A stretch of 64,000 nt of DNA. Source: Pyrodictiaceae archaeon (GTDB lineage Archaea > Thermoproteota > Thermoprotei_A > Sulfolobales > WANQ01). Below the pieces are notes generated by a model, which made no database searches, was not told the origin of the DNA, and saw only the letters and a program-made list of their open reading frames with translations. Position numbers and translations under genes: made by a program. This document shows positions 696 through 41,559 of this stretch, piece after piece (positions within the stretch are counted from its first letter, which is position 1; every line of letters begins with the position of its first letter). The DNA lies in the NCBI GenBank assembly GCA_015521735.1, contig WANQ01000030.1:30659-94658 (forward strand). The letters are read 5' to 3'.

Positions 696-717
696 GTTAT
701 GGGGCTTTAACTTATTA

Positions 718-1404: not shown

Positions 1405-1539
1405 TACTAGGCTTTAATAACCGTGTTAATTACCTGGGCATACCTAGTTATCTACAGAACACCGTAGAGTTTTGTTGGAGTTATTCTACAGTTATCCTTA
1501 TTCTAAAAGAATACTATTGTATAATACATGGTGTAGTAA

Positions 1540-2949: not shown

Positions 2950-2952
2950 GAG

Positions 2953-4491: not shown

Positions 4492-4588
4492 CTATAACGT
4501 CATCGTATTGAATATTGGAGGAGTAGGAAGAGTCACCGTTAGCAGGGCTTAACTACTATAGGCTTGTTTAGAATGACTTAACAGTTAG

Positions 4589-5446
4589 TTGTTTTTAACT
4601 TTAGTGGTATTTCTAAGGAACGTCATCTGTATTCTTAGAAGGGGGTTATCTGTGTCTAGAGGTTGTAGTAGGAGGTATATAGTGTTAATTGTTCTTGCAA
4701 TTATTTTGTTGGGATTACTGAATAGTTTTATGGTTGTAGAGGGTGTTTCTACTGCTAATGGGAAAATTCTTACATATGTTGTGGAAGAGCCTAAATCATG
4801 GTATATGGATATGGTGGCTTCGCTTATTGTTAACGATACAACTGTGATTGAGGGGTATTATTCGTTTACAGTACTAGTAGCATATAATCCTAGAGAAAGC
4901 GAGCTCATTGTTAAGGGTATTCCTCAGTTCATTTCCGTGAATGTAGATAGCGTATTTGGACTACTACGTGTTGTCCCTAAGCTATTCATTAACGATATTG
5001 TGAATAAGAGTGTATTCACCTTAAAACTTGTCTACTCGAATAAGAGTATTAGTTCAAGAGAAATTAAGGTACGCGTAGAGGAGACAGTCTATGAGGGATA
5101 TAATGCAGTTAGAGTAGTGATTAGGTCTTTGAATACAACGCCTATTCTAATATACAGAGATGATGGAGTATTGCTTAAAGCTGAAGGAGTGAAAATGTAT
5201 TATAGTTCAAGACAGGCAGGCATGGTGCTTATAGCTGAAGATGATTTAGTAAAAAAGCTTTCAGAGACAACTAAGACATCTACTAGCCCGTCAGCTAGGT
5301 TAGTTGCTAATGCTACTAGGTTATTGGAGGAGAATACATCAGCTAGTGGAGTGTGGTTATCTAATCTCATGGCTACTGCTATGGTTGCTGTTGTTGTGGG
5401 AATACTAGCTATTGTCTTGGCTTACAAGTTGAGGAGAAGGTCTTAG
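4589..5446 (+). CDS. Hypothetical membrane-anchored protein (N- and C-terminal TM helices)
   Basis: Hydrophobic N-terminal segment (YIVLIVLAIILLGLL) and C-terminal TM plus basic tail (AMVAVVVGILAIVLAYKLRRRS). The TTG start is uncertain. Confidence 0.5.
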   Translation: MFLTLVVFLRNVICILRRGLSVSRGCSRRYIVLIVLAIILLGLLNSFMVVEGVSTANGKILTYVVEEPKSWYMDMVASLIVNDTTVIEGYYSFTVLVAYNPRESELIVKGIPQFISVNVDSVFGLLRVVPKLFINDIVNKSVFTLKLVYSNKSISSREIKVRVEETVYEGYNAVRVVIRSLNTTPILIYRDDGVLLKAEGVKMYYSSRQAGMVLIAEDDLVKKLSETTKTSTSPSARLVANATRLLEENTSASGVWLSNLMATAMVAVVVGILAIVLAYKLRRRS

Positions 5447-5463
5447 GAACTTGTGCTTGTTTG

Positions 5464-5739
5464 CTAGGATTGTTTTCTCATACACATTATAGCGAATACA
5501 AGGTGTATTATGCCGTAGCCTATTATGAACCATAATGGTGTTAGTGTTAGTAGGAATGCTATTGCTTGAAGGTATTGGCCTTGGCTCCATAGATTTTGTG
5601 CTACTCCGGTAATGTATTGTGTAGCTATGAGAGTCATAGGTAGTAGTATTAGTAGTAATAGTATTGCTAGTACTAGTCTCTGTAGAGGGTCTAGTCCATC
5701 AATATAGCATACATTATTGCTAGACACTTTGCTACTCAT
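5464..5739 (-). CDS. Small integral membrane protein (91 aa)
   Basis: Three hydrophobic stretches (LVLAILLLLILLPMTLIA, IAFLLTLTPLWFIIGYGIIHLVFAI). There is no competing ORF on the other strand apart from a short overlap. Confidence 0.4.
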   Translation of the reverse strand: MSSKVSSNNVCYIDGLDPLQRLVLAILLLLILLPMTLIATQYITGVAQNLWSQGQYLQAIAFLLTLTPLWFIIGYGIIHLVFAIMCMRKQS

Positions 5740-5772
5740 AGTATCTGTTTAAAATTTAGAGATTCCTAGTTT

Positions 5773-8180: not shown

Positions 8181-8756
8181 CTATCCTCCACCCTGAATAG
8201 TTCTAACCTTATCCCTAACCCTACTAAGAGACTCCCTCAACACCTTCCTAACATTAACTAGTGGTTCAAGGACCTTGTCCAGCAAACTGGTAACCTGCTC
8301 AATAAACCTACCAACCCTACCCATATCATCACCATTAACAACAACTAGTAATGGATCCACTAGCCTACGCCCACTAACATAGTGCACCAATACAACATCA
8401 GCACCACTTAAACCAGCAATAAACCCTCTAATAAAAGACTCAAAACAATCACTAGCCACTAAGTCAACATAAACAACCTTACCCAAACCCTCTAATCCAT
8501 CAGCAACAGACCTTAAAACATAGCTTAACTCAGGAACACTTAAGCTAATAGACCCTAACCGCAACTCAAGCAAAACATACCTTCCAATCAAACCCAAAGA
8601 CCTAAACTCAACCACAACCCCAGACTTAGCCAACTTAACCCTAAACACACTAGACGAGCCACGATCCACAAGAAACATTCTAGCCTCAAGCTCCTCTAAA
8701 AGACCAAGAAAAGCCTCCTCCAATGAACCACCCACATACACCACAGAAACCCCCAA
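8181..8756 (-). CDS. Hypothetical protein (191 aa), distant paralog of 10782..11429
   Basis: Val/Gly/Leu/Arg-rich ORF. Its C-terminal half (VDPLLVVVNGDDMGRVGRFIEQVTSLLDKVLEPLVNVRKVLRE) aligns by eye with TIDPLIILVRIDRGELLVKTLETIIRLIDKTLEAMTEVGKLVRE of the other ORF. Confidence 0.55.
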   Translation of the reverse strand: MGVSVVYVGGSLEEAFLGLLEELEARMFLVDRGSSSVFRVKLAKSGVVVEFRSLGLIGRYVLLELRLGSISLSVPELSYVLRSVADGLEGLGKVVYVDLVASDCFESFIRGFIAGLSGADVVLVHYVSGRRLVDPLLVVVNGDDMGRVGRFIEQVTSLLDKVLEPLVNVRKVLRESLSRVRDKVRTIQGGG

Positions 8757-12756: not shown

Positions 12757-15700
12757 ATGAAGGCTAGGCCCACTATACTATTACTCATAGTAGTCCTCCA
12801 ACTACTCCTACCAGTTAACTACATAGGCTATACTACTACAAACTACGCTACCAGTACTGTAAGCTTAAGAATAATACCATCTACACCAATGGACATGGAG
12901 CCCACCCTAGTACTAGTAGAATACCCCTACAACGACAACCCATACCTAAACACCAACATCACAGTCAACACCGACTTCAAGCTAAAGTATAGTACAAGCA
13001 TAGTAGAGTCTACTGGTACTAAGACTCTCACAGTAAACGTTATCAGAGAAAACACTCCAACCCCACAAGCATACGTAGAAGTCTACGATATCCTAGGAAA
13101 CATTGTAGCATCAGGATTCACTGATAGCAATGGTAAAATAGTGTTCAGTGTTAACCCAGGCGACTACATAGTTAAAGCATTATACGACGTCGACGGCGAC
13201 GACCTATACGAGGAATTTGGTTTAAGCAACGTTAAAGTAGGACTACTATTTGGTGCTGAAACAACAATATACCTTAAAGACATAGATAGAGTACTAGAAG
13301 AACTATTAGGCATAGCATCTAAGTATAGCATAACAACAACAATACCACTACTACGAGTAGACAGCAGACTATACATTACAAGTATACCAGGCCTACCCTC
13401 AAAACAATACAGTACATGGGCTCCAAAACCACTTCCACCAGGCACATTATACGTTAACGTTTACTCAAAAACAGTCCTAACACTAATGGATAGTTACGGC
13501 AAAGTAATCGGCAGAGTAGAATACACTGTATCAATGCCTAGGCCTAAGGAAAACCTTAAACCACTAGTACTAATGTTCGTAAACGATACATTAGAGAACA
13601 ATAGGCTATGGTTCGAGACACTAGGTCTATCACCAGAAGGCTGGAGTATTAGCGAAAACAAAGAACTAGTAGTTAATGTAGTAGCAGTAGACGATGAAAA
13701 CATTAGTAAAGTAGAATTCTACGTATCAGTAAATAGTGGTGAATGGACTAGGAAACCACTCTACAATCACCCATACATGGATAAGCTAAGATTACTCAAA
13801 AACACCGTAGAGAAACTATTAGGCAATATAACAAGCCTACTAGGCAGCCTAGGCATACCAGTAGACTATAAGCCTAAGATAAGCTTAGGAGTATACCAGG
13901 CAATACTACGTTTACCTAAAGGCTCATACGTACTATACTATGCTTACGCAGTAGATAGTGAAGGATCGTCAAGCGAATCCCCTATGGGGCTAGTACACGT
14001 CTACACCAGTACGCCTAAACATAGAATACTCGTAGTTGACCCACATGTTAAGCTATGGCTACTTAGAGCTAATGGACTTGAACTACTAGACCAGGTAAAA
14101 TCAAGCATAGACTACTACAAGATAGCACAACTAGTATATACTAGGAACTGGAAGTACCGTGAAAACATTACAAAAATTATAGAAGCGTTAGTAGACTACG
14201 GGTTCACACCATTCCATTACTGGGGTTACATGCTAGGAGACCTCTACGAGTTCAAGATAGTATGGCCAGATGAAAACCTAAGCAGTGTACTAGAGGAGTA
14301 CAAGCCAGACGTAATAATACTAAGCAACCTGTATCTAGGAGTAAATGGCTCAGACATATTCGACTGGGATCTAAAAGACCTAGACGTACTAAGCAACCTC
14401 ATAGAATATGTTCAGGAAAACCATGCAGGCCTAATAGCTACTCATGGAACACTAAGCGACCTATACATATGGTATGATACTGGAGAATACTATAAAGTTG
14501 GTAGCCGAGGCCATGTAGGCTCTAAGCCCGAAGACATAGGCATACTAGTGGATAGCCTAGTAGAGGAGAAAACAGTTTCAGCTATGACAGGGCTTAGATG
14601 GACACCTCTATTCGAGTACATTAGGGATCAGATAGCATACCATGTATGTAGTCTTGGAGATAGCCTCATGGAAACAAACCCTATAGCAGGTACAGTTGTT
14701 AAAGCAGTAGGACTAGCTATTGGGTCAACACCACTACAAATACCATGGATACCCTGGAATGGCTCACTAAGGCCAACAAATGATACATTCATAGAAGGAT
14801 GGAGCATACCAAGCGAACCAGTAATAATACCCAGCCCATACCAAGAACTATCAAGTAAATACAAAGCCTACACACAAATAGGATGGCAACTAGGCTCACC
14901 CAAAATAGCATTCAACATAATGCTTAATGAGCTTAAGAAAAAGAAGCCAATCATAACAGAATTCTACGAAAACCTCTCAAAACTACTAAGCACCGCCACG
15001 AACAGAGAGTTAGCCAAGATACGAGAATACGTTAACAGGACAATAGATCACGGACTACTAGATCTTGTGAAAACCTACTCGCAAATGAATATCACAGACA
15101 ACACCATAACCATAAACCCCATAATACCTGAAATAGAAGAAAAGCCATGGGTTAAGGAGAAATTAAAACTAAACACAACGCTAACCAATAAGGTAAAAAG
15201 CATACTACTACAATACTATCCGGTAAAGATATTTGCTCTATCACCAGATTATCTCGCCGGCATTGTAGGATATGATAAGTTCTGGGACGAGGAGAAAGGT
15301 TACCGAGCAATATACTTTAGCTTCGAGGTAGAAGCATGTATAACCTACTCATGCAAACACTTGCTAAGACAAGCAGTTAACTGGACAACATCGTGGAAGT
15401 ACATAGACATACTAGAACTACTAGAAAACACTATCCCAGTTGAGAAGAAGAAAGCAGAGATAATAGACAAGGTACTAGAAGAACTAAACGCTACAGAAAT
15501 ACTATCACATACAACAATACTACCAAGTAATAGTACGTTAAAACTAAACGTAAGCGTAGAGGAAGGCCAACCAATACTCCTAGTCTACACACCCATAGAG
15601 GTAGGAGAAGTAGAGGTAAAACCCAAGCCCATAGAAGTAGAAGAAGTAGCCAAGGGAGTATACAAAATAGTATTGGAGAAGGTAAAGCCAGGTACACTAA

Positions 15701-16734
15701 GCCTAGAGCTAAGAATAAGAGGCGCAGACACCATAATCCAGCCAATACTAGTTAAACTAGTAGAGAAAATAACTGGGAAACCCAGCATAAAGAACATAGT
15801 AAGAATAAAAGTACTAGACAAAGAGAACGTAGAAGTATACTTCAATACAACACAACTACTAAGACAAGGCATAAGAGAAATAGTAGTCAACAAGACATTG
15901 CTAGGAAACCTACTACCAGCAAACATTACACTAAAAACCACGCTAACAATAAAGAACACACGTATAAGTATAAGCCTAAAAGACTACACAGACCCCAAAG
16001 ACAGGCTAAGAAAAGACCTCAACATCAAAAACATCCTAGAAGACATAAACACGTCTATAACACTAAAGCTGCGTAAGGGAACAAGAACACCAAGCCAAAT
16101 AACAATAACAGTCAAAGACAACATACCCAGAGCAAACCAAGTAATCCTACCAATAGCATGGAACCTAGAACCCAGTGGAACAGTCTTCGATAAACCCATA
16201 ACAATAACCATAACCTACCCAGAAAAATACGTTAAAGGCATAGATGAAGCCAACATAAGAATAGCATACTACGACGAAGAGAAAAACAGGTGGATACCAC
16301 TAAAAACAACCATATACCCAGAACAAAACAAAGCAATAGCAAACACAAGCCACTTCACACTATACACACTAATAATAACACCACAAGAACAAACAACTAA
16401 GCCAACACCAACACAAACCCCCACAACAACCATCACAGTAACCAAGACAACAACCACAAAGAAAACCACAACAATAACAATAGCCACAACAACTACAACA
16501 ACAAAAACAACCACAAAAGAAACAACCACAACAAGACAACTAACAACAACAACCACCCAAACAATAACAAAAACCTACACAACCCAGAAAACAATCCAGA
16601 AAACAACCACAATAACCCAGAAAACAATACCATACGAAACACTAGCAGCACTCACAATAGTAGCAATAATACTAATACCAATCACAGCAACCATAACAAG
16701 AAAAAGAAAAACAAAGAAAACAACCAAAACCTAA
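12757..16734 (+). CDS. Large secreted/surface-anchored protein (1325 aa) with Thr-rich stalk, C-terminal TM anchor and basic tail
   Basis: Signal-like N-terminus MKARPTILLLIVVLQLLLPV. Carboxypeptidase-regulatory-like segment VEVYDILGNIVASGFTDSNGKIVFSVNPGDYIVKA, with many N-x-S/T sequons. The C-terminus runs TTKPTPTQTPTTTITVTKTTTTKKTTT..., then the TM helix LAALTIVAIILIPITATI, then RKRKTKKTTKT. Confidence 0.8.
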   Translation: MKARPTILLLIVVLQLLLPVNYIGYTTTNYATSTVSLRIIPSTPMDMEPTLVLVEYPYNDNPYLNTNITVNTDFKLKYSTSIVESTGTKTLTVNVIRENTPTPQAYVEVYDILGNIVASGFTDSNGKIVFSVNPGDYIVKALYDVDGDDLYEEFGLSNVKVGLLFGAETTIYLKDIDRVLEELLGIASKYSITTTIPLLRVDSRLYITSIPGLPSKQYSTWAPKPLPPGTLYVNVYSKTVLTLMDSYGKVIGRVEYTVSMPRPKENLKPLVLMFVNDTLENNRLWFETLGLSPEGWSISENKELVVNVVAVDDENISKVEFYVSVNSGEWTRKPLYNHPYMDKLRLLKNTVEKLLGNITSLLGSLGIPVDYKPKISLGVYQAILRLPKGSYVLYYAYAVDSEGSSSESPMGLVHVYTSTPKHRILVVDPHVKLWLLRANGLELLDQVKSSIDYYKIAQLVYTRNWKYRENITKIIEALVDYGFTPFHYWGYMLGDLYEFKIVWPDENLSSVLEEYKPDVIILSNLYLGVNGSDIFDWDLKDLDVLSNLIEYVQENHAGLIATHGTLSDLYIWYDTGEYYKVGSRGHVGSKPEDIGILVDSLVEEKTVSAMTGLRWTPLFEYIRDQIAYHVCSLGDSLMETNPIAGTVVKAVGLAIGSTPLQIPWIPWNGSLRPTNDTFIEGWSIPSEPVIIPSPYQELSSKYKAYTQIGWQLGSPKIAFNIMLNELKKKKPIITEFYENLSKLLSTATNRELAKIREYVNRTIDHGLLDLVKTYSQMNITDNTITINPIIPEIEEKPWVKEKLKLNTTLTNKVKSILLQYYPVKIFALSPDYLAGIVGYDKFWDEEKGYRAIYFSFEVEACITYSCKHLLRQAVNWTTSWKYIDILELLENTIPVEKKKAEIIDKVLEELNATEILSHTTILPSNSTLKLNVSVEEGQPILLVYTPIEVGEVEVKPKPIEVEEVAKGVYKIVLEKVKPGTLSLELRIRGADTIIQPILVKLVEKITGKPSIKNIVRIKVLDKENVEVYFNTTQLLRQGIREIVVNKTLLGNLLPANITLKTTLTIKNTRISISLKDYTDPKDRLRKDLNIKNILEDINTSITLKLRKGTRTPSQITITVKDNIPRANQVILPIAWNLEPSGTVFDKPITITITYPEKYVKGIDEANIRIAYYDEEKNRWIPLKTTIYPEQNKAIANTSHFTLYTLIITPQEQTTKPTPTQTPTTTITVTKTTTTKKTTTITIATTTTTTKTTTKETTTTRQLTTTTTQTITKTYTTQKTIQKTTTITQKTIPYETLAALTIVAIILIPITATITRKRKTKKTTKT
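16381..16635 (+). repeat. Low-complexity A/C-only coding tract (Thr/Lys/Gln-rich stalk of the surface protein)
   Basis: The DNA here is almost exclusively A and C (ACA/ACC/AAA/CAA codons), e.g. acaacaaccacaaagaaaaccacaacaataacaatagccacaacaactacaacaacaaaaacaacc. Confidence 0.8.
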
Positions 16735-16786: not shown

Positions 16787-17640
16787 CTTTCAGTTCTTTT
16801 TGGTTTGATTGAACTAAGCAAAGCGTTGTGGAAATTAACTTACCTCTAGAGTTTCTCTTTCAGTTCTTTTTGGTTTGATTGTAGAGCTTTAATTGAATCA
16901 TATAACTTAGGCTAGCTTTTAACTCACTTTCAGTTCTTTTTGGTTTGATTGGAAGAAAACAAAAAGAGCAAGGTATCACGATACTCAGAGTGATCGCACT
17001 TTCAGTTCTTTTTGGTTTGATTGCAGTATACAAGGATAAGTCTTATGAAAATGAGGTAGTAATATATGCTTTCAGTTCTTTTTGGTTTGATTGAGCTTCC
17101 TTACAGTCATGTTCTGCACCTAGTATACACTTGTATACTTTCAGTTCTTTTTGGTTTGATTGCAATGGGATCCTCAAAGTATGTGAATGTAAAGATTAGA
17201 AGAGCTTTCAGTTCTTTTTGGTTTGATTGCCATCCTTATAAAAGTCTATCGTCTCCGCCCAGTATTCACTAAACTATCTTTCAGTTCTTTTTGGTTTGAT
17301 TGAGAATGCGTGGTGTGATATGATGTTGCCGACAATTAACGACAACTTTCAGTTCTTTTTGGTTTGATTGACACGGGTGAGCCACTACAGGGTGCAACAA
17401 TAAAAGTTAATGGTCTTTCAGTTCTTTTTGGTTTGATTGAGACGAGATAATTAAGATGGGCAGTGTAGTAGTTCAGTTGACTTTCAGTTCTTTTTGGTTT
17501 GATTGAACACCTTAATTGAAATGCTCAACAACATAGCAGACCACGAAACTTTCAGTTCTTTTTGGTTTGATTGAGCACGCCTTAGAGAAGTTGTTCGTGA
17601 AGCCGAGCGTAGGGCCTTTCAGTTCTTTTTGGTTTGATTG
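16787..17640 (-). CRISPR. CRISPR array: 13 identical 25-bp repeats and 12 unique spacers of 41-48 bp
   Basis: The repeat on the + strand is CTTTCAGTTCTTTTTGGTTTGATTG. Repeats start at 16787, 16857, 16927, 16999, 17069, 17138, 17205, 17278, 17346, 17415, 17481, 17549 and 17616. The minus-strand reading CAATCAAACCAAAAAGAACTGAAAG ends in the archaeal ...TGAAAG 5'-handle motif. The long AT-rich non-coding flank lies at 17641 onward, so transcription is inferred to be on the minus strand. Confidence 0.95.
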
Positions 17641-19492: not shown

Positions 19493-20332
19493 CTAGTATA
19501 GTATTGTTTCTAGTAGCCTTCTAGCCCATGGTGATAGCTTACCGTTTCTTACTTGTAGGCCTATCTTATCTAATAGTCTTCTCTCTGCTAAGCCTATCCT
19601 ATTGTTCAAAGCGTTCTCTAGTAGTTTACGTGCATTCTCGTCTACTCTTAACGGTATTACTGGTAATTCTACTATGTCCTTCATTGCCTCGTGTATATAG
19701 TATACTGTGTCTATTCCTAGTAGGCCTGAGGCCACTAGTATTGCTGCTGACTCAGGCTTAAAGCCTCCAGTAAGATTCGCTAAAACCCTATCATACCTAG
19801 CACCCACACTTAGTATTATCCTCTTAACCTCTGCTACCAAATTCAGTATTCCCTCAGAGAAGTCTACTCCTAGCTTCCCCACTCTACGTGCTTCTACTCC
19901 ATCTATTACGTGGCCCTCAACACCCCATACCCTGGATAAATCTTGGCCCACAAACCCTCTAAGATACTCTTCCAGCACCCTGGTAGAAAACCATCCAGCC
20001 CCAGTATCAGTACTCAATAATACTACGTGGTGTCTTACACCTCTAACACCATTACCAGCCAAGTACTCCAGATACCCTATGAACGCGTTAAGCTCAGCAC
20101 TAGCTCCACGGGGATTATCTGAGAGATAGCCAAGTACAGCCTTAAACTCATCCGTACCTAGTACAGCCCTATTACTAGCCTCTAAGTCCTCACTACTACC
20201 AGGCTGTGCCTTAGACCATGCTACCAGCTTGCTCCGTACGTCCACGCTTACACTGTCATGCATTGAAGCATTACGTATAATACTAGTACCAACAGTAACC
20301 AAGTGAAGAAAACCAAGCACTACATAGGACAC
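19493..20332 (-). CDS. CARF-domain protein (Csx1/APE2256-like sensor domain) with short helical C-terminal domain and no HEPN motif
   Basis: CARF landmarks LHLVTVGTS (beta1 loop), HHVVLLSTDT, and ANLTGGFKPESAAILVASGLLGIDTVYYIHE. The C-terminal ~60 aa (ARKLLENALNNRIGLAERRLLDKIGL...) is wHTH-like and has no R-x4-6-H. GTG start. Confidence 0.8.
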   Translation of the reverse strand: MSYVVLGFLHLVTVGTSIIRNASMHDSVSVDVRSKLVAWSKAQPGSSEDLEASNRAVLGTDEFKAVLGYLSDNPRGASAELNAFIGYLEYLAGNGVRGVRHHVVLLSTDTGAGWFSTRVLEEYLRGFVGQDLSRVWGVEGHVIDGVEARRVGKLGVDFSEGILNLVAEVKRIILSVGARYDRVLANLTGGFKPESAAILVASGLLGIDTVYYIHEAMKDIVELPVIPLRVDENARKLLENALNNRIGLAERRLLDKIGLQVRNGKLSPWARRLLETILY

Positions 20333-22940: not shown

Positions 22941-23262
22941 AAGACTACACACACTAAGAAACTGGCACAACCTAGCAAACACCATAGCCAACATCCTAAA
23001 GAACACTATACCCGACATAGAAGTCTACGTATTCGGAAGCGTACTAGAAGAAGACAAGATCACCGGGTCAAGCGACATAGACATACTAGTAGCAATCCCA
23101 GAAAACCACGACGAAGCAAAAACACACCTAACACTACTAAAAACCCTAGAAGACAAACTAGGCAACACAGCCCACCTAATAGACCTACACGTAGTCCACA
23201 AAAACAAGCTAAACAAACCACCATACAAATGGTGGCTCAAAAAACACCACAAAATAATTTAA
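22909..23262 (+). CDS. Minimal nucleotidyltransferase (MNT), second copy
   Basis: VYVFGSVLEEDKITGSSDIDILVAIP signature. It overlaps the 3' end of the HEPN reading frame by 32 nt. Confidence 0.85.
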   Translation: MQKNFGEWLSKRLHTLRNWHNLANTIANILKNTIPDIEVYVFGSVLEEDKITGSSDIDILVAIPENHDEAKTHLTLLKTLEDKLGNTAHLIDLHVVHKNKLNKPPYKWWLKKHHKII

Positions 23263-23412
23263 AAATCACACAACTAAGTCCATAATCAATTAATAATCTT
23301 TGTTACAAGCTATTTTCTCTACCATTATTATTCTACTTACACTATTCTTACATCATTAAGGCATTTATTACGATATCTTAAATACAGTCCAATGTCATCA
23401 CTTATGTATACC

Positions 23413-24567
23413 TTAGTTATGTTTTGCGACCTTCAATTCGAGTGTATTAAGGGCTGTAGTAGGTATTGGTATTATGGTTCCCCATCCAAGCTCTTTATAT
23501 TCACCTGCACCTTCTATGTACAATTGTTTCCAATTCTTAATTGTTGCCTCAAATAATGCACCTGGCATTATTGAGCTACGTATAGGTCTTGGAATATTAA
23601 GGCATAGGTCATATCCTAACCCTACTACTGTAAATATTGTTCTATGTTCTTCTAGCCCTATACTTTTAGCTGGATCAATTATGTAAGATCTAACTGTTAA
23701 TTCCTCTGCTTTAAGATATTTGTTTAATAACTTACCTATGCATTTTATCGCATAATCTCTTGGATTGGTAAAAGCGTGAACAGAATCATTGGTATCGCGT
23801 TCATGAACCTTACTAATTACTATTGGTGATGCTACATATAGTAGTGCCCTACTGGTATTAGTTTTTCTCCACTCATTCTCTAAGAACTCATACAATGGTG
23901 TCTTACTCATAGTTTTAAGTAAGGCTGGTCTTGATTCTCCTCCCGCCACTATAATACCTTCCTTTACGCTTTTTCTACAATTATCGTCGAAACAGAAGAC
24001 CTCAGCTAGTACACCGTATTCCTTAACTAATGCATTATTGCCGATCAATTTTCTTGCTATAGCTTCTGCCAAGAGCTTTGGTGAGAACTCAACCTGCGTA
24101 TATATGAGTCCTTCAATAGTGCTTTTTGTATCGTTCCTTAGGGCTATTCCTATGTGTTGTACTCCAACTTCTTCAGCAATTATGTATGTTGCTCTTCTTA
24201 ATGAAATATCTATACATAGTAGTTTTTTGGGATACTTATGTAAACATATTACTTCATGCTCTTTTACCTTATTGTTAGAGGAAAAAGCCTTAACGTAAAA
24301 GTATGGGCCACGTATGCTAAACTTTGCACCTAGATTTACTGATAGTACTCTTTTAGTATTACTAAATGGGTCCTTATCTACGCATTTATTCTTATCCTTC
24401 CAGTTAACGTATGCGAGTACTCCAGCGATAGTGCTAGGCAATGGTAATATCTCTGAATAGGCGAATGCCGTTGGTCCTCTGATCTCAGGTGTAAATTCCC
24501 CCTCCCATCTGAATGAACTGGTTGCTAAATGCATTATTAGAATTGAGAGCTTGTACATAGTGGTCAC
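23413..24567 (-). CDS. cmr3: Cmr3 (Cas5-family RAMP subunit of the type III-B complex)
   Basis: N-terminal RGPTAFAYSEILPLPSTIAGVLAY and C-terminal glycine-rich loop GAGEYKELGWGTIIPIP. The GTG start overlaps the cas10 stop codon (GTGA). It is the last gene of the cmr operon, as in Sulfolobus. Confidence 0.8.
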   Translation of the reverse strand: MTTMYKLSILIMHLATSSFRWEGEFTPEIRGPTAFAYSEILPLPSTIAGVLAYVNWKDKNKCVDKDPFSNTKRVLSVNLGAKFSIRGPYFYVKAFSSNNKVKEHEVICLHKYPKKLLCIDISLRRATYIIAEEVGVQHIGIALRNDTKSTIEGLIYTQVEFSPKLLAEAIARKLIGNNALVKEYGVLAEVFCFDDNCRKSVKEGIIVAGGESRPALLKTMSKTPLYEFLENEWRKTNTSRALLYVASPIVISKVHERDTNDSVHAFTNPRDYAIKCIGKLLNKYLKAEELTVRSYIIDPAKSIGLEEHRTIFTVVGLGYDLCLNIPRPIRSSIMPGALFEATIKNWKQLYIEGAGEYKELGWGTIIPIPTTALNTLELKVAKHN

Positions 24568-27500
24568 CTACTACCCGACTTTAAGTAATCAGCCATACGT
24601 ATAATAGCCCAAGGTGTTAATTCACGAGATATTTCATTACCAATAATAGTCTCAATATTCTTTTCAACAACCATGTTTTCAAACTTCTTAAGCAACTCCT
24701 CTACATTGTCGACTACTTTCATTGAAGGTGCATGGGTATTCCTCTTTATTATTTCTATAAGAACCTTGAATGCAAGACTACTATAACTGTCGTTGTATGC
24801 ATAATTATAGTTAGTTATTACATCTTTAGGTAGACTACTGGAAAATATTCCCGATACGCCTAAGTTCTCTGCTATTATGGCTGCCAATAATAAGGCATAT
24901 CCTATGAAGTCATCGTTTGTATGATAATTGGGCAATGCTACTAATTGCCTAGTTAAGTCTCTTGTGAGTTGAGTAAGTCCGCTAATACGTCCATATAAGG
25001 CCACAATTACATCTTTCTCTATGGGTGTTTTGGACTCGTACATTGTCTTTATGTTGCTCTTAAGTTCTTCAAGCATATGGCATAATCTCCAAGCAGGCCA
25101 TAGGGGATCTTTATAATGAGCTATAAGTAGTCCATAACTTCTACCATGAGCAGGAATGGCTGCCATAAGCAAGTTACCTATAATGTGGAAGCCTTTAAAG
25201 TATGAGTCTACACTCCAGTAGTTTCTTCGTGTAGCAATTATCACATCTGCTGCTATGAAACCACTACATGGTATCTTTATCTTACCTAGTTTACCATTAG
25301 TAGGTATCTCACATACTAAATCTCTTTGATTATCTATACCACTTTGCAATTTTAATAAATCTCTATCAACGTACACAGGAGCCATGACAAAGATATCATC
25401 GCCTCCAGAATAGACTACGAATCCTCCAAGGAGATCATTTAACAATATATCGGTTATTGAAGTTATCATTAGACCCCTTGAAAGTGCTGAGTGATACGCT
25501 GGAGATATTATTAAAGTTGCATCGCTATGCTCTATTCCTAGAATACTTAGACTATTACGTATAAAGTCGTTAAATGCACTAACTAAGTTAATGGTAGCAT
25601 CGGTTATATTTTGGAATAAGCCCTGTATACCCCTTGGTAAGGCTTTGCTTATCTCGCTGAGGTACTCTTTTATAGATATTGGTGTAGCTCCTTTAATGAG
25701 TTTATCAAGATTATCTCCATCACCTACTATTATAGTATAGTATAAGTTGCTTCTTCTCTTAAGTTCGTCTAATAAGAATTTGAATTCTTCATCGTCCTTA
25801 GCTATTACTCTAACTATTTCATATAATAGCTTACAGTTTCGTTCATCGCATTTATCGGTTGCTAGCATTATTAACTGGTCATCTAGGCCTAACTGTGATA
25901 GAGCATGTGAAATCAGTTTTACTATCTTCTCCAAACTACTTAATTCTTTTTCCTTACCAACATACTTTGCCTTGAAAAGCCCTGGTACTATGTGAGTATA
26001 GAGTGACTCTTTATTAATATTAATTATCTCTTTTAATTTATCTAAGGCATTATTTTCTAGGGCTTTCTTTTCTAGATACAATATAGCATTAAGTGATGCT
26101 AGCTCATTTGTTGATGGAACATGCATTAAAGCGCCCTCAACGTGTAATCCTATTTTTTCTAGTATCTTTGTAAACCCTTTCTCTACCGAGAGCAACCTTC
26201 GCACTAAACAATAGGGGCAAAGGGTTTCTCCTTCAGTAAATAGCGTTTTAGGTAAACCTAATTTTTCCACAATAAGTTTGTCTCGTATCTTTGTAAACTC
26301 CTCACCATGAGGCAATCTTATGACAGCAGGTAGCTTGCTGCACATAGAGCACAATCTAATTCTTTTTCTCTTCTCATACAGCTTATTAGTGTATTCTTCT
26401 ATGGCTTTTGCAACCAAGTACCCAGGCTTAAACGAAATAATTGTATTAGCCTCTCTAAGATCTTCTCTAGTTAGGGCGTAAGCGAATAGCCAGTGATAGA
26501 ATAACTTATCAAGAATGCGGTCTACTCTTATATTTAGTTTGCTACTTACATTTTCAAGTATATCAATTAGCTTGTCTTTAGCAATCTTCTTAAACTCCTT
26601 GAACTCGTTACCTACATCTACAATTGTTACCCTTAACTGTAAAGGTGGTTCACTAGTAACATGTTCAAAATACTTCTTATTCAATTCTTTTTCATCTAAT
26701 CCCAATGAGCTTAGTAATTCCTCTATGTTCCTCTTACCTTCAAGTGATTCGTAGAGTGCTTCTATTATCCTTTTCCAACACTTCTTAAACCTTCTTATAA
26801 AATACTTCTTTAATGAATCCTTTACCGGGGAACCATTCATGACATCATTGATAAATTCTTTGAGCTCCTCTGAAAGCCTTGTTGCATCAACCTTGTTAAC
26901 CAACTCTAATATTATGGCAGCTGGTGGAAGCGCTAAATATAGTGTGGCAGGTATTACTGGTTGAGTAGGAACCTTAAATAATTCGCTATGAATATTGCTT
27001 AAGACGTTCTTCTCCAAGAACTTTGCTAACTCATCTAACCCCAAATTAATCGCTTCTCTTAGAATAGATGATGTATAGAATGGATTTAAACTAATATTGG
27101 GCAAGAGTACTGTATCCGCCCCAAGATATAAGACAAGTTCTGATAAAGCACACCACGCTAACGCTGAAACAAGCCAGCTACCAATCCAAAGATCTCTAAT
27201 CTTACGAGCACGTGATATAAAATCTTGTACACTAGCAACATCTATTTTAACCAAATACCCTTCAGGAGCCTCACTATCTGAACCTATAAACCAGTTCACC
27301 ATTGAAGCTGTAGCATTAACATGGTCAAAGACTGTATGCGTTGGTGCACGAGTATCAGCAACAGGCACACACAGACTACAGTTCTTATACCATAGAAGCT
27401 CGTAAGCTAGTAGCAAGACATTGTATGCCAACCATTTTGGAGCATTACTTAGCTTTCTCGCAAGTTCTAAGAGATCCTTAGTAAAATTACATATAGATTT

Positions 27501-27962
27501 CGCGCCAATCTTATCCTTTATGATATTATGTAATTCATCATAATTTATGTAATATCTTGGGTTAACAATATTCACGATTCTCAAAGGCATTTCTATACGT
27601 CCGCTAGCCTTTAATGAAGACTCTATGAACCATCTATCAATAGATGATGCAAAAGAGTCAGCATTGCTAACTATATTACTTGTCATCAGCTCCTTTAATC
27701 TCTTACTTAATTCTTTAAAACCTTCTATATTCTCGGCAACATGCTTTAGTAATACCATAGCTTCCCTCTCATGTTCATCTATATCCGCAAATGGCACTAC
27801 CTCAACTATGTCCCTGCAATATTTTTCACCATCAACTCTTTCGCCAGGTTCTTTCTTCGATAGAACCCTTCCCTTGCCACTAAAGTATTGTGTAATCACC
27901 CAAGGTTTCCAAGGTGGATCATGTAGAAGTGCAACTAATTTATACTCATGGATGTCAACCAT
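24564..27962 (-). CDS. cas10: Cas10/Cmr2 large subunit with HD domain and intact cyclase (GGDD) palm
   Basis: N-terminal LVALLHDPPWKPW (HD motif) and THTVFDH. Treble-clef zinc-finger Cys pairs CSMCS...CPYC, first palm IIVGDGDNLD, and second palm VVYSGGDDIFVMAP. 1132 aa. Confidence 0.95.
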   Translation of the reverse strand: MVDIHEYKLVALLHDPPWKPWVITQYFSGKGRVLSKKEPGERVDGEKYCRDIVEVVPFADIDEHEREAMVLLKHVAENIEGFKELSKRLKELMTSNIVSNADSFASSIDRWFIESSLKASGRIEMPLRIVNIVNPRYYINYDELHNIIKDKIGAKSICNFTKDLLELARKLSNAPKWLAYNVLLLAYELLWYKNCSLCVPVADTRAPTHTVFDHVNATASMVNWFIGSDSEAPEGYLVKIDVASVQDFISRARKIRDLWIGSWLVSALAWCALSELVLYLGADTVLLPNISLNPFYTSSILREAINLGLDELAKFLEKNVLSNIHSELFKVPTQPVIPATLYLALPPAAIILELVNKVDATRLSEELKEFINDVMNGSPVKDSLKKYFIRRFKKCWKRIIEALYESLEGKRNIEELLSSLGLDEKELNKKYFEHVTSEPPLQLRVTIVDVGNEFKEFKKIAKDKLIDILENVSSKLNIRVDRILDKLFYHWLFAYALTREDLREANTIISFKPGYLVAKAIEEYTNKLYEKRKRIRLCSMCSKLPAVIRLPHGEEFTKIRDKLIVEKLGLPKTLFTEGETLCPYCLVRRLLSVEKGFTKILEKIGLHVEGALMHVPSTNELASLNAILYLEKKALENNALDKLKEIININKESLYTHIVPGLFKAKYVGKEKELSSLEKIVKLISHALSQLGLDDQLIMLATDKCDERNCKLLYEIVRVIAKDDEEFKFLLDELKRRSNLYYTIIVGDGDNLDKLIKGATPISIKEYLSEISKALPRGIQGLFQNITDATINLVSAFNDFIRNSLSILGIEHSDATLIISPAYHSALSRGLMITSITDILLNDLLGGFVVYSGGDDIFVMAPVYVDRDLLKLQSGIDNQRDLVCEIPTNGKLGKIKIPCSGFIAADVIIATRRNYWSVDSYFKGFHIIGNLLMAAIPAHGRSYGLLIAHYKDPLWPAWRLCHMLEELKSNIKTMYESKTPIEKDVIVALYGRISGLTQLTRDLTRQLVALPNYHTNDDFIGYALLLAAIIAENLGVSGIFSSSLPKDVITNYNYAYNDSYSSLAFKVLIEIIKRNTHAPSMKVVDNVEELLKKFENMVVEKNIETIIGNEISRELTPWAIIRMADYLKSGSR

Positions 27963-27966
27963 AATA

Positions 27967-36898: not shown

Positions 36899-37498
36899 TT
36901 GAGGGCATACTGTCTCCCCTTGATGGTGTGTTATTCTCTCTTGGTAGTGGTAGGGGCTTGCAGGGGCTTCTCCTGCAGGGTGGTCTACGCTATCCTAGTA
37001 CGCCTGTGTCTGGTGCCAGCGGTGTGGTTCCGGGCCATCAGAACATATATATTGGGGGGAGAGGTGGAGTCGCGTAGGTCTAAGGGTAGGGAGTTCAATA
37101 GTATACTAGTTGCTGTAGCACTGGTGCTGGTAGGGGTAATTGTAGGTATTGTAGGGATATACTACTACTATGCTAGGGGGCCCTATTCTCCAAGTGGTGG
37201 TAGCGAGTACGTTGTAGCTAGGGTTCCGAGAATACAGGTAGTTAATGTTTACGCTAAGGGGTATCTTAGGGGACTGGATTATAGGGCGAATGTTACGGCT
37301 GTTCTAGAGAACCTGGGGGATCGTGGATGCTATGCTAACGTATACCTCTACTGTACATGTGATGGTGTAACTAAGGGGGTTTACGACTACGTGTATGTGC
37401 CTGGGAGAAGCTATGCTTATGCCTACGGGGATGTGGATGTAGCTTTTTGGAGTAACTGTAGGTGTGGGGCAAGAGTAGAGGACATAGAGTGTCCCTAG
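36899..37498 (+). CDS. Hypothetical membrane protein with Cys-containing extracellular domain (start uncertain)
   Basis: TM helix ILVAVALVLVGVIVGIVGIYYYY. The C-terminal domain has CYANVYLYCTCDG...NCRCGARVEDIECP. The true start may be the in-frame GTG at 37064. Confidence 0.5.
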   Translation: MRAYCLPLMVCYSLLVVVGACRGFSCRVVYAILVRLCLVPAVWFRAIRTYILGGEVESRRSKGREFNSILVAVALVLVGVIVGIVGIYYYYARGPYSPSGGSEYVVARVPRIQVVNVYAKGYLRGLDYRANVTAVLENLGDRGCYANVYLYCTCDGVTKGVYDYVYVPGRSYAYAYGDVDVAFWSNCRCGARVEDIECP

Positions 37499-37619
37499 AC
37501 CTCTGGGGAGCACCCTCTTTGATTAAATAATATCTTTTTTCCTTCTACGCCTAGTGTTCCCTCTCCTCTCTCTTTATAAGGTTCTCTACTTGTAACAAGG
37601 TATTCAGAGGGTTGGAGGG

Positions 37620-38813
37620 TTGTCTAGTCTTATTCAGGCAGTGGATTCTTTGGCTAGGTTGTTTGCTGGTATTAGGGGGTCTATGGGCAGTATTGTTGTG
37701 TCTAGGGTTGAGAGGAGTTTGGATGAGTATGTGGAGGCTACTGGTGTTTCTAGGGCATTGGAGTCTCCGGGTATTGTGGGTTTGTGGGAGGGTGGGCGTG
37801 GATTTGATGGTGTTGTGGGTTATGTGGATTCTAGTTCGCGTAGCATAGGCTTTAATCAGTCGAGGTTCACCATAACGGGTTTAGCTGTTAGCGTTAATGG
37901 TTTAATAGAGTTTTCGCCCAACGTGAGCGGTGTCTTAGCTACTAGGTTTCTTGGTGTAAAGTCTGTTAGACCGGTGCTTGAGAGAGTTGAGTCTAGTGGT
38001 TTGGGGTTTACGGTTGTTAAGAGTGTTGTTGGCGAGTACTATGATGTAGACTATAAGGATGATAATATTGGTGATGAGCTTAGAATAGAGTTGGAGAACC
38101 GTGCGTTGGAGAAGCTAGGTGGAATGGGGAGTGTGGATGTAGTGGTAGTTGATGGGCCAGTATACCATGCCCAACAGATACTATTCCACGATAACTGGAG
38201 GGAGAATAAGTATGCTAGAGCATTCTATGAGCTATTAAAGGATAGGGTAAAGGTCTTAGCAAATAGTAGTAAACCCGTAGTGGGGTTTGTTAAGAGGGTA
38301 GAGTATAGCCGTAAACTAGCGAAATGTGATGAAGTAGTGGAGATAATAGAAAAAGCTATGGGTAGGAGGCCTTCACCGGAAACAACTGATCCATTGATAG
38401 TTGAGTATCTTGCTGAAACCTATGTAAAGCCTAGGCTAATGCAGTTAGTGGTGATAGGCCCACTTCTACTAGAGTACAAGAGGAAGCCTAGAGGACTAGA
38501 AGAACTACTAGTAGAGAAGGTGTACTGGTACATTGCCCGTAAGACGCCACGAGGATACCAGATTGCACGAATAGAGGTGTTGAGGAAGCACTGGGATAGG
38601 TGGAAGAACACTATCCTGGAAGCACTTGACTTGTTGTTAAGCTCTCTTAGTCTTAGGGGTGTTCCAGTAGGCCTAGAAATAGTGGATAGGGCTTCACGTA
38701 GGCTAACAGCACTACTCTACATGTTGTTGTATCAGAGGCTTGCAGGTATAATTAGCTTAGCCTACGATGAATACGGTAAAGTTAACGAGGTTTATAGAGA
38801 ACTAGTAGAATAG
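37620..38813 (+). CDS. nurA: NurA-domain nuclease
   Basis: NurA landmarks GYVDSSSRSIGF...GLAVSV, VDVVVVDGPVY and VVGFVKRVEYSRKL. 397 aa, immediately upstream of a HerA-type ATPase. TTG start. Confidence 0.65.
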   Translation: MSSLIQAVDSLARLFAGIRGSMGSIVVSRVERSLDEYVEATGVSRALESPGIVGLWEGGRGFDGVVGYVDSSSRSIGFNQSRFTITGLAVSVNGLIEFSPNVSGVLATRFLGVKSVRPVLERVESSGLGFTVVKSVVGEYYDVDYKDDNIGDELRIELENRALEKLGGMGSVDVVVVDGPVYHAQQILFHDNWRENKYARAFYELLKDRVKVLANSSKPVVGFVKRVEYSRKLAKCDEVVEIIEKAMGRRPSPETTDPLIVEYLAETYVKPRLMQLVVIGPLLLEYKRKPRGLEELLVEKVYWYIARKTPRGYQIARIEVLRKHWDRWKNTILEALDLLLSSLSLRGVPVGLEIVDRASRRLTALLYMLLYQRLAGIISLAYDEYGKVNEVYRELVE

Positions 38814-38837
38814 TATTCCTTAGAGGGTTGGCTGGCT

Positions 38838-40739
38838 ATGGGGTTTCAGGATGTTTCTGATAAGCTTAGGGAGTTGATTAGTAGTGCTGTGGAGTTGGCT
38901 AGGAAGTTATCGGTTGATGGTAGAGTTATTGGTAGGATTACGAGGGTTCAGCCAGTAGAGGTTGTTGAGGATAAACGTGTTGTCTCGATAGAGGTTTCGT
39001 TTAAGGAGTACTTGGACTATATTGTGGGTGGAGGAGTGTTAGGGCTAGGCTCTATACTTGGCATAGTTAACCCTATAGTTAACCGTATAGTGTTGGGTAG
39101 GGTTATTGGTTATAGGAGGGAGGATCTATTATCGGCTATGAGGATACCTGTTACCACTGTAATAGAGGATCCGTCAACGCTTCAAACACCACTAGTACTA
39201 GGCTTAGACCTGGTAGCTGAAGCAGAGATAGGAGACAACGGGCTAGGTGAACCACAGCCACCGACAACCCCTATTGAGCCTGGATCACCTGTGATAGTTC
39301 CTAAGCCATTCATAGCGAAGAAGCTCTTGGGTATACCAGGTGAAGGCGTGTTGTTGGGCTACTTGGTTACTGGTAGTATTGTTAGGAGAGATATTGATGT
39401 GAGACTACCGTTGAAGACACTATACCATCACGTACTAGTTATTGGTACAACTGGTAGTGGTAAAACAGTGTTAATGAAGAATCTAGCATTATCAATACAC
39501 TATGAGTACAGGGACTTGAATCCACTAGTAGTAGCATTTGACTTACAGGGAGACTACCTAACACTTGTGGAAGAGAATAGTGAGCTAGACCCCAGTGATA
39601 AGAGGTATAGTCCACTAGAGAGACTAACAGTAGTATTGCCGGTAACCAAGACCTTTCTAGAAGAGTTGAAGAAGAGCATAGATAGGAGTGTAGGGAGTGT
39701 TGAAGAGCTAGCAGGAGAGTTGGCTAGGAGGATAGCTGAGGAATATGTTGGTAAAACTTATCGTGACTACAGTATAGTTGGAGTAAACCCTAGCTTAAGG
39801 AGGGTAGATGAAGAAGACGTAGTGCTGGAGGCAGTAGACGTGGTTTTGGAGGGAGGGGGTAGAGAGTTATCCTTAACGATAATTCCGTGGAGTTTAAGGT
39901 ATGTTGATGTTAGAGGCCAGTTAGGAGAATTTATGCCCATGTTTACTGATCAAGCAAGACTATTCCTACCAAAACTATTGGAGAAAGCACGGTGGAGTAG
40001 GCTTGAGAAAATAGTTACCAATATAGGTAATGTTGAAGCAATAGCTAGTAGGGATTTACAGCTACATAAGTCTACTACAGCTAATATCCTTAGAGGACTA
40101 CTAGCACTAAACGATACGGGATTGTTCGATAACTATGTTGAATTAGATAAAACTGTTGGCCAAGGAGTCTATACGCGTAAGCCTCTTGTATGGATAGCTG
40201 AACCAGACTACAGGGTACTCTTCGAATTAGTAGCTAGTACGCTAGTAGTAGATCTTAGATGGGCTAACATGTATGCTACATCACCTTACACGCAGACAAT
40301 AATAGTTTACAGGGTATTGGAGAGGATATTTAACTGGAAGGATGAGAGGCTTAGAGAAGGAAAGACTACTAGGCCAACAATAATACTAGTAGATGAAGCA
40401 CACAACTACTTCCCACAGTCAATGAGAGAGAACTTTAGCAAGGATATAGTAGAGGCAACTATAAACAAGCTAACAAGACTTGGAAGGATTAGGAGGATAG
40501 GAGTAGTATTTGCAACTCATCAACCACAAGACCTAAACAACCTAGTAATCCAGTTAACTAATACCAAGGTAGCTTTTAGGAGTGATAAGAGGAGTTTAGA
40601 AGCAATAGGGCTGGGAGAATACTATGAAGTACTAAGAAACGCTCCAAGCGGATACACGGTGACGTCAAGCTACGCTATAAGAGCTCAGACAATAACAGTT
40701 CAAACACTGCCGCCACAAACAAGGCATCAGAAACCTTGA
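38838..40739 (+). CDS. herA: HerA/FtsK-class (DUF87-type) hexameric ATPase
   Basis: N-terminal barrel-like region, Walker A VIGTTGSGKTVLMKNL, Walker B PTIILVDEAHNYFP, and VVFATHQPQDLN. 633 aa. Confidence 0.85.
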   Translation: MGFQDVSDKLRELISSAVELARKLSVDGRVIGRITRVQPVEVVEDKRVVSIEVSFKEYLDYIVGGGVLGLGSILGIVNPIVNRIVLGRVIGYRREDLLSAMRIPVTTVIEDPSTLQTPLVLGLDLVAEAEIGDNGLGEPQPPTTPIEPGSPVIVPKPFIAKKLLGIPGEGVLLGYLVTGSIVRRDIDVRLPLKTLYHHVLVIGTTGSGKTVLMKNLALSIHYEYRDLNPLVVAFDLQGDYLTLVEENSELDPSDKRYSPLERLTVVLPVTKTFLEELKKSIDRSVGSVEELAGELARRIAEEYVGKTYRDYSIVGVNPSLRRVDEEDVVLEAVDVVLEGGGRELSLTIIPWSLRYVDVRGQLGEFMPMFTDQARLFLPKLLEKARWSRLEKIVTNIGNVEAIASRDLQLHKSTTANILRGLLALNDTGLFDNYVELDKTVGQGVYTRKPLVWIAEPDYRVLFELVASTLVVDLRWANMYATSPYTQTIIVYRVLERIFNWKDERLREGKTTRPTIILVDEAHNYFPQSMRENFSKDIVEATINKLTRLGRIRRIGVVFATHQPQDLNNLVIQLTNTKVAFRSDKRSLEAIGLGEYYEVLRNAPSGYTVTSSYAIRAQTITVQTLPPQTRHQKP

Positions 40740-40800: not shown

Positions 40801-41559
40801 TTAATCCTTAAACAATACTCCTATGCCAGCCCATCCTTGCTTCCAGTCTTTAACTATTTCTACGTGCTTGTACTTGTGCTTTATTTCCGTCCAGAATCTA
40901 GGTACTCCGACAATGCCTTGGGGATCATATTTAGGGTCGTGGGGGGCTATGTCGTGGAAAGCTATTATGCCGTTTCTCCTAACTAGTGGTGAGTACATTT
41001 CAAAGTCTTTTCTAATACCTTCATATGTATGGTCTCCATCTATGAACAAGAAGTCTAGTTTTCCACTATCTAGTATTTTCTTGACTTCTTCAAGAGTCTT
41101 AGGGTTGTGGGAGTCTGCTCTTAGCAGGTATAGTCTTTGCCTTGGCTTCTTAAAGTACTTGTATAGAACTCCTCTCCACCTTGGATAACCTCCTCCAAAT
41201 AATCCTCCTGGAAGATCAATGCTGATCACGGTAGCGTCTTCTCGAGCTAGTCTACACCAAATGAATAGTGTACCGCCATGTGCAGTACCTATTTCGAGAA
41301 CGGTTTTGGGCTTAAGCTTGTCGACGAGTTCAGCGAGTCCTAGGATTTCCTCGTATACTTGAGCTGGCTTAATGTCAATGTAGGTATCGTGTCCTAGAAG
41401 GACACTTGCAATAGGATCCCTATACTTGAAGCTAAAGGCTAGGTCTACGACCTCCTTTGGGGAGGAAATATTATTGGATAACTTTTTGAGATGCCGGCCT
41501 GCTAGCCTAGCGATAAGCAAGTATCTTACAATATTGTAAACTGTTCCTGTAAGCCCCAT
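40801..41559 (-). CDS. Class I SAM-dependent methyltransferase (CmcI/Methyltransf_24-like)
   Basis: VLEIGTAHGGTLFIW (SAM motif I), VISIDL, and FLFIDGDHTYEGIRKDFEMY. Confidence 0.8.
   Translation of the reverse strand: MGLTGTVYNIVRYLLIARLAGRHLKKLSNNISSPKEVVDLAFSFKYRDPIASVLLGHDTYIDIKPAQVYEEILGLAELVDKLKPKTVLEIGTAHGGTLFIWCRLAREDATVISIDLPGGLFGGGYPRWRGVLYKYFKKPRQRLYLLRADSHNPKTLEEVKKILDSGKLDFLFIDGDHTYEGIRKDFEMYSPLVRRNGIIAFHDIAPHDPKYDPQGIVGVPRFWTEIKHKYKHVEIVKDWKQGWAGIGVLFKD

Follow-up and report, generated by a model that had tools for sequence, protein, structure and literature searches.

The question raised by this locus is whether a nurA-herA gene pair that borders a CRISPR-cas island is the housekeeping DNA-repair pair or something else. 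The locus lies in a 64,000-nt stretch of contig WANQ01000030.1 from a Pyrodictiaceae archaeon, the whole of which was analysed and is referred to here as the window. The pair is best explained as a new member of the 'Cas NurA/Cas HerA' ('Type III coevolved') accessory family already described, and it comes from a Desulfurococcaceae-like lineage that is uncultured. An earlier sequence-only reading of the window had recognized a NurA-domain nuclease with DSS, VVDGP and KRVEYS motifs, followed 24 nt later by a 633-aa HerA/FtsK-type ATPase with Walker A and Walker B motifs, and both genes and all of these motifs were confirmed. The two genes, which are separated by positions 38814-38837 and form one operon, were called independently on four public contigs that carry an identical HerA. 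In NurA, the motifs D70-SSS, E153, VVVD178-GP, K225-RVEYS and D356 are present and invariant across 12 homologues, and in HerA the Walker A (GTTGSGKT, residues 203-210) and Walker B (LVDEAH, residues 517-522) motifs are invariant across 11.

On the basis of its domain score, fold and conserved acidic residues, the nurA product is a member of the NurA superfamily. Its NurA domain matched Pfam PF09376 (3.7e-17; 63.1 bits against a cut-off of 21), and when its AlphaFold 2 model (predicted local distance difference test score, pLDDT, 88.9) was compared with the PDB using Foldseek, the top 13 matches were all NurA proteins, followed by Argonaute PIWI and RNase H. A sequence search of the PDB with NurA gave no match, the relationship being detected only by the Pfam and PADLOC profiles and by fold comparison. 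Judging by their order and spacing, D70, E153, D178 and D356 would correspond to D51, E105, D126 and H411, the metal site of Pyrococcus furiosus NurA (PMC3300031). The herA product is a member of the HerA/FtsK ATPase superfamily according to its central domain, Walker motifs and fold. Its central domain matched DUF87 (1.9e-9; 38.4 bits against a cut-off of 23.2) as well as several HerA/FtsK-type P-loop families in Pfam, and the protein comprises an N-terminal barrel and a RecA-like core, with an enlarged insertion at residues ~245-500 between Walker A and Walker B. The best PDB matches of the HerA model (pLDDT 85.2) were the HerA proteins of T. kodakarensis (Foldseek 5.5e-21), S. solfataricus and D. 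radiodurans; bacterial defence HerA structures ranked after the repair HerAs, and sequence identity was ~13% throughout.

Structures of the canonical complex are available from S. solfataricus (4D2I, 2YGK), P. furiosus (3TAI) and T. kodakarensis (9X1L-P; PMC3326311, PMC5715905, PMC12977600), and canonical HerA-NurA resembles the window pair in its folds, Walker A and B motifs, RNase H-like D-E-D-(D/H) site and gene adjacency, besides providing the best structural matches. In contrast, canonical HerA is ~500-540 aa long and lacks the enlargement of the insertion seen in the longer window protein, to which it is only ~13% identical, and the relationship between canonical and window NurA is undetectable by sequence (hhalign probability of 0.4% for the NurA alignment versus canonical NurA). 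The window HerA scored 33.1 bits with the NCBIfam equivalog NF040937 (HerA_Thermprot; cut-off 800), which it thus missed by more than 750 bits, and 28.7 bits with NF040819 (cut-off 970); across the canonical, anti-phage and Ced equivalogs it fell short of every cut-off by more than 500 bits. With profile hidden Markov models (HMMs), the canonical set of which was built from five canonical operons, the window HerA scored 39.8 bits with the canonical model versus 413-427 with those of the non-canonical clades, and the window NurA scored 3 bits versus 119-155. A BLASTP comparison of the window HerA with canonical Desulfurococcaceae HerA aligned the Walker A and Walker B regions only. By these sequence comparisons, the window pair is not orthologous to the housekeeping repair pair.

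The genomic setting of the two kinds of pair also differs, as the canonical pair clusters with mre11-rad50 and the window pair does not. A phmmer search of the window in six-frame translation, with two canonical operons as queries, found no Mre11, no Rad50 and no second NurA or HerA, the sole match being the herA open reading frame (ORF) itself at 35-37 bits. Clustered canonical nurA-herA-mre11-rad50 genes, with a HerA of 521-537 aa, were present in every sampled relative (L039, L065, L066 and L067-L074, our numbering of loci), all of them related Desulfurococcaceae and Sulfolobales genomes, and one metagenome-assembled genome (MAG), Bin S21, holds the canonical operon and a non-canonical pair together. 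The sequence-only reading had stated that the pair stands without mre11 and rad50 nearby and that the canonical resection genes of crenarchaea usually cluster with these two, and both statements hold here; its preference for a non-housekeeping pair linked to CRISPR or defence is supported by this linkage and by the grouping test that it had called for, in which the pair did not group with canonical repair orthologues. We therefore regard as highly improbable the explanation that this is the housekeeping end-resection NurA-HerA, separated from mre11-rad50 in this organism. It would account for the correct folds and intact active sites of both proteins, and the canonical operon of this genome was not located, three canonical-HerA candidates having belonged to other samples, but it conflicts with the equivalog, HMM and hhalign scores, with the clustered operon of all sampled relatives and with the coexistence of both kinds of pair in Bin S21.

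An association between NurA-HerA and CRISPR has been published previously (PMC3396285, PMC3973734, PMC6546367, PMC10910872). Bernick 2012 (PMC3396285) described nurA-csm6-herA clusters in Pyrobaculum and Thermoproteales and proposed a role in providing substrate for spacer acquisition; according to Vestergaard et al. 2014 (PMC3973734), 'Cas HerA/Cas NurA' (Tagg_0815/0814) are specific to CRISPR types I and III; the PADLOC profiles PDLC01055 and PDLC01056 derive from the 'Type III coevolved' clusters 57 and 58 in Shah et al. 2018 (PMC6546367); and Altae-Tran et al. 2023 again counted both proteins among the putative auxiliary genes of CRISPR. These two 'Type III coevolved' profiles were the top PADLOC matches of the window proteins, with 239.3 bits for HerA over residues 84-615 (PDLC01055) and 85.6 bits for NurA (PDLC01056). 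The family is rare, with 95 representatives at E<=1e-30 among 1.84 billion. Like the known Cas NurA-HerA loci, the window has an adjacent pair that diverges strongly from the repair pair, a CRISPR repeat and a type III module nearby, a CARF7/'csm6' gene in the locus, and apparent vertical inheritance of the pair while cas cassettes change. Among the features by which membership is judged, adjacency of nurA and herA and a neighbouring CRISPR repeat and type III cas genes are present in the window; a CARF gene within or beside the pair is absent, and the later papers do not demand one.

A neighbour-joining tree of HerA contained three groups, namely clade I, clade II (bootstrap 63) and the canonical set. 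Clade I unites the window's own subfamily (43-66% HerA identity) with loci from Vulcanisaeta, Metallosphaera, Sulfolobales and Thermoproteales; the Desulfurococcaceae-like subfamily forms a separate branch whose deep placement is weakly supported. The NurA tree had the same topology, and both trees, which were built without the reference proteins Tagg_0815, PAE0128 and VMUT_1471, put the pair with the CRISPR-linked loci at low deep bootstrap. Because this deep bootstrap is low, monophyly was not relied on, and gene neighbourhoods and HMM scores were used instead. The clade I HMM was preferred over that of clade II by all eight NurA proteins tested and by seven of the eight HerA proteins.

Comparison of neighbourhoods, which the sequence-only reading had proposed as a check, revealed recurrent linkage to CRISPR: in 5/8 related lineages the pair has CARF genes, cas4, cas6 or CRISPR arrays as neighbours, although the adjacent genes differ from one lineage to the next. 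At L057/58 the pair is accompanied by a Csx1-CARF gene, a 46-repeat array and cas6. At L059 (positions 1-5750) a trio of Csx1-CARF, nurA and herA genes is enclosed between two inverted arrays that share the repeat CTTTCTATTCCCTTATATGGGATC, and 27 nt separate the herA stop codon from the start of the second array. L062 carries an orthologue of the window CARF7 gene together with cas4, and L063 carries a CARF7-like gene; overall, adjacent CARF genes were seen at L008, L012, L013, L057, L059, L062 and L063. The 74 ORFs around eight clade I loci included four CARF7/Csm6 proteins as well as Cas3 and Cmr6 matches. By contrast, CARF proteins and type III effector genes were both absent from the 100 ORFs around nine clade II loci, among which there was just one solo Cas4. 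The clade II sister pairs (L009-L011, L014-L016, L018, L020, L021, L064), with a HerA of 620-745 aa, lie among metabolic genes and probably correspond to the third Pyrobaculum paralogue group. The clade II pair of L011 is ~6 kb from canonical nurA-herA genes. Neighbourhoods discriminate clade I from clade II, unlike the PADLOC profile.

The position of the pair within the island could be resolved by aligning three strain variants, the window, L002 and L056, whose HerA proteins are 96% identical. The three are unrelated to the left of position ~36480 and 85-99% identical to the right of it. The conserved right side comprises a 62-aa ORF, a degenerate orphan CRISPR repeat, a Cys-rich gene, nurA, herA and the downstream genes, and the left side holds unrelated cassettes: the Cmr module in the window, a cas4-containing segment in one of the others and a different Cmr module in the third. 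In the window, the block from ~23000 to 36480, which contains the Cmr genes and the three genes that follow them, has a GC content of 0.31-0.37, versus 0.40-0.48 in the flanking DNA, and the right edge of this low-GC block is the point at which the three variants stop aligning. This suggests replacement of whole cassettes at a fixed hotspot. The strain-variant alignment therefore makes the pair a conserved anchor that borders a cassette-swapping CRISPR-cas hotspot rather than a part of the mobile cassette.

Several observations weigh against reading the pair as a CRISPR-dedicated system. The pair itself has a host-like GC content (0.43-0.45) and lies on the conserved flank, outside the mobile low-GC cas cassette, and its linkage to CRISPR here could therefore be positional. 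No CARF gene lies within or beside the window operon, and the nearest one, CARF7, is 17 kb away, whereas in the Pyrobaculum Cas pairs a CARF gene is located between or beside the two genes. Three of the eight lineages (L060, L077 and L005) have no cas gene on their contigs, which are short and end <=1.5 kb after herA. The PADLOC HerA profile is unspecific: Thermoproteales Cas HerA proteins scored 493-662 bits, the window only 239, Sulfolobales 186-218, the non-CRISPR clade II proteins, for which it was also the best match, 137-171, and canonical HerA 80. A match to the PADLOC 'Type III coevolved' profile was consequently rejected as sufficient proof of membership. The HMM of the CRISPR-linked clade is only slightly favoured by the window proteins (427 versus 413 bits for HerA, 155 versus 119 for NurA), and deep nodes are poorly supported in both neighbour-joining trees, which re-rooting may have distorted further. 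In the literature we found no biochemical or genetic study of CRISPR-linked NurA-HerA pairs.

These observations bear on the alternative that the pair is a CRISPR-independent second DNA-metabolism paralogue, comparable to clade II, that merely borders a CRISPR-cas integration hotspot. Its position on the side of the cassette breakpoint that is conserved and host-like in GC content and the near-equidistance of its HerA from the two clades fit such an explanation, as do the clade II pairs found among metabolic genes, for example at L010 and L064, and the three related contigs without cas genes. It would leave unexplained the recurrence of CARF, cas or array linkage in five of eight lineages, including one trio enclosed by two arrays, and the preference of nearly all tested proteins for the clade I HMM; moreover, the three cas-negative contigs stop within 1.5 kb of herA. 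We consider this alternative unlikely, albeit deserving of some weight.

HerA-family ATPases paired with nucleases also occur as bacterial anti-phage modules, and this comparison, which the sequence-only reading had drawn, stands as an analogy only. Sir2-HerA (Nezha, PMC11472057) and DUF4297-HerA (PMC11291478) resemble the window system in that a HerA motor is paired with a degradative effector and the surrounding genes are rich in defence functions; they are bacterial, whereas the window system is archaeal, is linked to CRISPR and has NurA as its effector. Membership in the bacterial anti-phage HerA families was rejected, given scores of 31.4 bits with NF042943 (cut-off 800) and 24.4 bits with NF042944 (cut-off 850) and a NurA partner. 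An autonomous innate defence module of this general kind, a HerA motor with a nuclease effector that acts independently of CRISPR within a defence island, would be in keeping with the toxin-antitoxin, HEPN-NTase, PIN and Fic genes around the pair at L060, L062 and L063, with the match of the HerA model to defence HerA structures at probability 1.0, and with the match of the subfamily profile to defence HerAs in the PDB at ~1e-9 to 1e-10. Structural similarity to repair HerAs is at least equal, however, the effector is neither Sir2 nor DUF4297, and the specific neighbours that recur are CARF genes and CRISPR arrays, so that we give this explanation little credence. A role in DNA translocation, raised in the same earlier reading, failed when taken as Ced-type DNA import, which was rejected at 35.3 bits with CedD (cut-off 600) and 25.7 bits with CedB (cut-off 700).

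As the pair has apparently been kept beside a CRISPR-cas island rather than beside mre11-rad50, we infer that it processes DNA for CRISPR. On balance, and with moderate confidence, we favour the interpretation that a HerA hexamer and a NurA dimer make up a machine that processes DNA ends at the expense of ATP and is dedicated to the CRISPR system. If it works as the solved canonical complexes do, the HerA hexamer would spend ATP to drive a DNA end through the NurA dimer, where the D-E-D-D metal site would digest one strand or both. The use that we prefer for such a machine is to destroy invader DNA processively after the neighbouring type III-B system, which appears competent for cyclic oligoadenylate (cOA) synthesis, has fired, and in many relatives coupling might occur via the adjacent CARF protein. 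On a second reading of the same activity, the pair would generate or trim DNA fragments for spacer acquisition.

In a more specific version, type III cOA signalling would destroy DNA through the pair: Cas10 would make cyclic tetra-adenylate (cA4), a CARF7 (Crn1-family) or Csx1-type CARF protein would sense it and then license or recruit NurA-HerA, and NurA-HerA would in turn processively shred invader or host DNA. We think this version rather unlikely. If it were true, the pair would be an ancillary effector of several subunits, driven by ATP, that no characterised CARF effector resembles, and the degradation products might also supply spacer acquisition. More generally, the role of CRISPR-linked NurA-HerA bears on how archaeal type III systems handle DNA in interference, spacer acquisition and repair of self-damage, and the recurrent CARF adjacency of the subfamily hints at a link to cyclic-oligoadenylate signalling that can be tested. 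Pairs of this kind have been catalogued since 2012 and the present one would hold no surprise for a specialist; what the locus adds is context, in which the pair is the stable border of a hotspot where cassettes are swapped. The equally diverged sister clade without CRISPR linkage provides a natural comparison group, and cultured carriers offer experimental entry points no worse than the uncultured MAG.

Coordinates of the operon and of neighbouring features, as positions in the window.
Feature	Coordinates	Strand	Basis and remarks
CRISPR array, 13 repeats, unit CTTTCAGTTCTTTTTGGTTTGATTG	16787..17640		Repeat search; spacing 66-73 nt
CARF7 / Cas_APE2256 protein	19493..20332	-	PADLOC CARF7 4.5e-64; Pfam Cas_APE2256 1.5e-29; GC 0.445, like nurA
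Type III-B cassette: cmr3, cas10/cmr2, cmr6, cmr1, cmr5, cmr4	23413..32269	-	PADLOC and Pfam matches
Three overlapping co-oriented genes (184, 485 and 446 aa)	32889..36168	-	Directly after cmr4; GC 0.32-0.36, like the Cmr genes
62-aa ORF, no family	36505..36693	+	First conserved element right of the breakpoint at ~36480; before the orphan repeat; homologue in L002 and L056
Degenerate orphan CRISPR repeat	36705..36729	+	Ends 891 nt before nurA; kept in L002 and L056
Cys-rich protein with one hydrophobic, probably membrane-spanning stretch	36899..37498 (gene callers: start 37064)	+	Judged by eye
Putative TATA box TTTATAA for the nurA-herA transcript	37573..37579	+	Read from sequence; kept in three strain variants
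nurA	37620..38813	+	TTG start; 397-aa NurA-family nuclease, RNase H-like fold, CRISPR-associated paralogue type
herA	38838..40739	+	ATG start; 633-aa HerA/FtsK-type ATPase
Methyltransf_24/CmcI methyltransferase, convergent, downstream	40801..41559	-	

Upstream of the operon, a T-run at 37531-37547 that follows the preceding gene is succeeded by the TTTATAA element, which on sequence grounds would act as the nurA-herA promoter, and then by a GAGGG Shine-Dalgarno-like motif that recurs ahead of herA. An identical motif, AGAGGGTTGG, stands ahead of both the nurA TTG (37605-37619) and the herA ATG (38820-38833) and is probably a ribosome-binding element shared by the two genes.

The immediate neighbours of the pair agree with the sequence-only reading, with a small Cys-rich, probably membrane-spanning protein upstream and a convergent methyltransferase downstream. 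The Cys-rich ORF had no family match in Pfam, NCBIfam or PADLOC. Its homologue lies directly upstream of nurA in L002, L056 and L060 and not in L057, L059, L062 or L063, and given its absence from this position in the more distant relatives, it was rejected as a core part of the module. The orphan repeat that the same reading had located about 0.9 kb from the pair was also recovered, and none of the three strain variants lacks it. One missing T aside, a 15-mer of it (36714-36728) is common to the array repeat, and two such matches arose in 0/100 shuffles. A second partial match with one mismatch, to the 3' half of the repeat (TCTTTGGGTTTGATTG), is located at 8585-8600 on the minus strand inside a 191-aa ORF without a family, and may be a repeat remnant or a chance match.

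From the end of the Cmr cassette to nurA is a distance of 1.45 kb. The Cas10 of the cassette carries an HD motif (H13 D14) and a GGDD motif at residues 853-856. The window CARF7 protein corresponds to the 'csm6' of the Pyrobaculum nurA-csm6-herA clusters, and the orthologue that adjoins nurA in L062 scored 433 bits; Crn1 ring nucleases have been assigned to the CARF7 family (PMC12409355). The three overlapping genes after cmr4 matched no Pfam, NCBIfam or PADLOC family, with the exception of a weak CARF/Csa3_N similarity of the 184-aa protein, and are candidate new type III accessory proteins. In the L056 strain variant, different uncharacterised genes (600 and 392 aa) occupy the position of this trio. 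Tandem Repeats Finder did not pick up the CRISPR array that was recovered by repeat search. A 1325-aa ORF without a Pfam match (12757-16734, plus strand) ends ~50 nt before this array, and the region encoding its C terminus (16377-16627) is low-complexity sequence rich in ACA/AAC.

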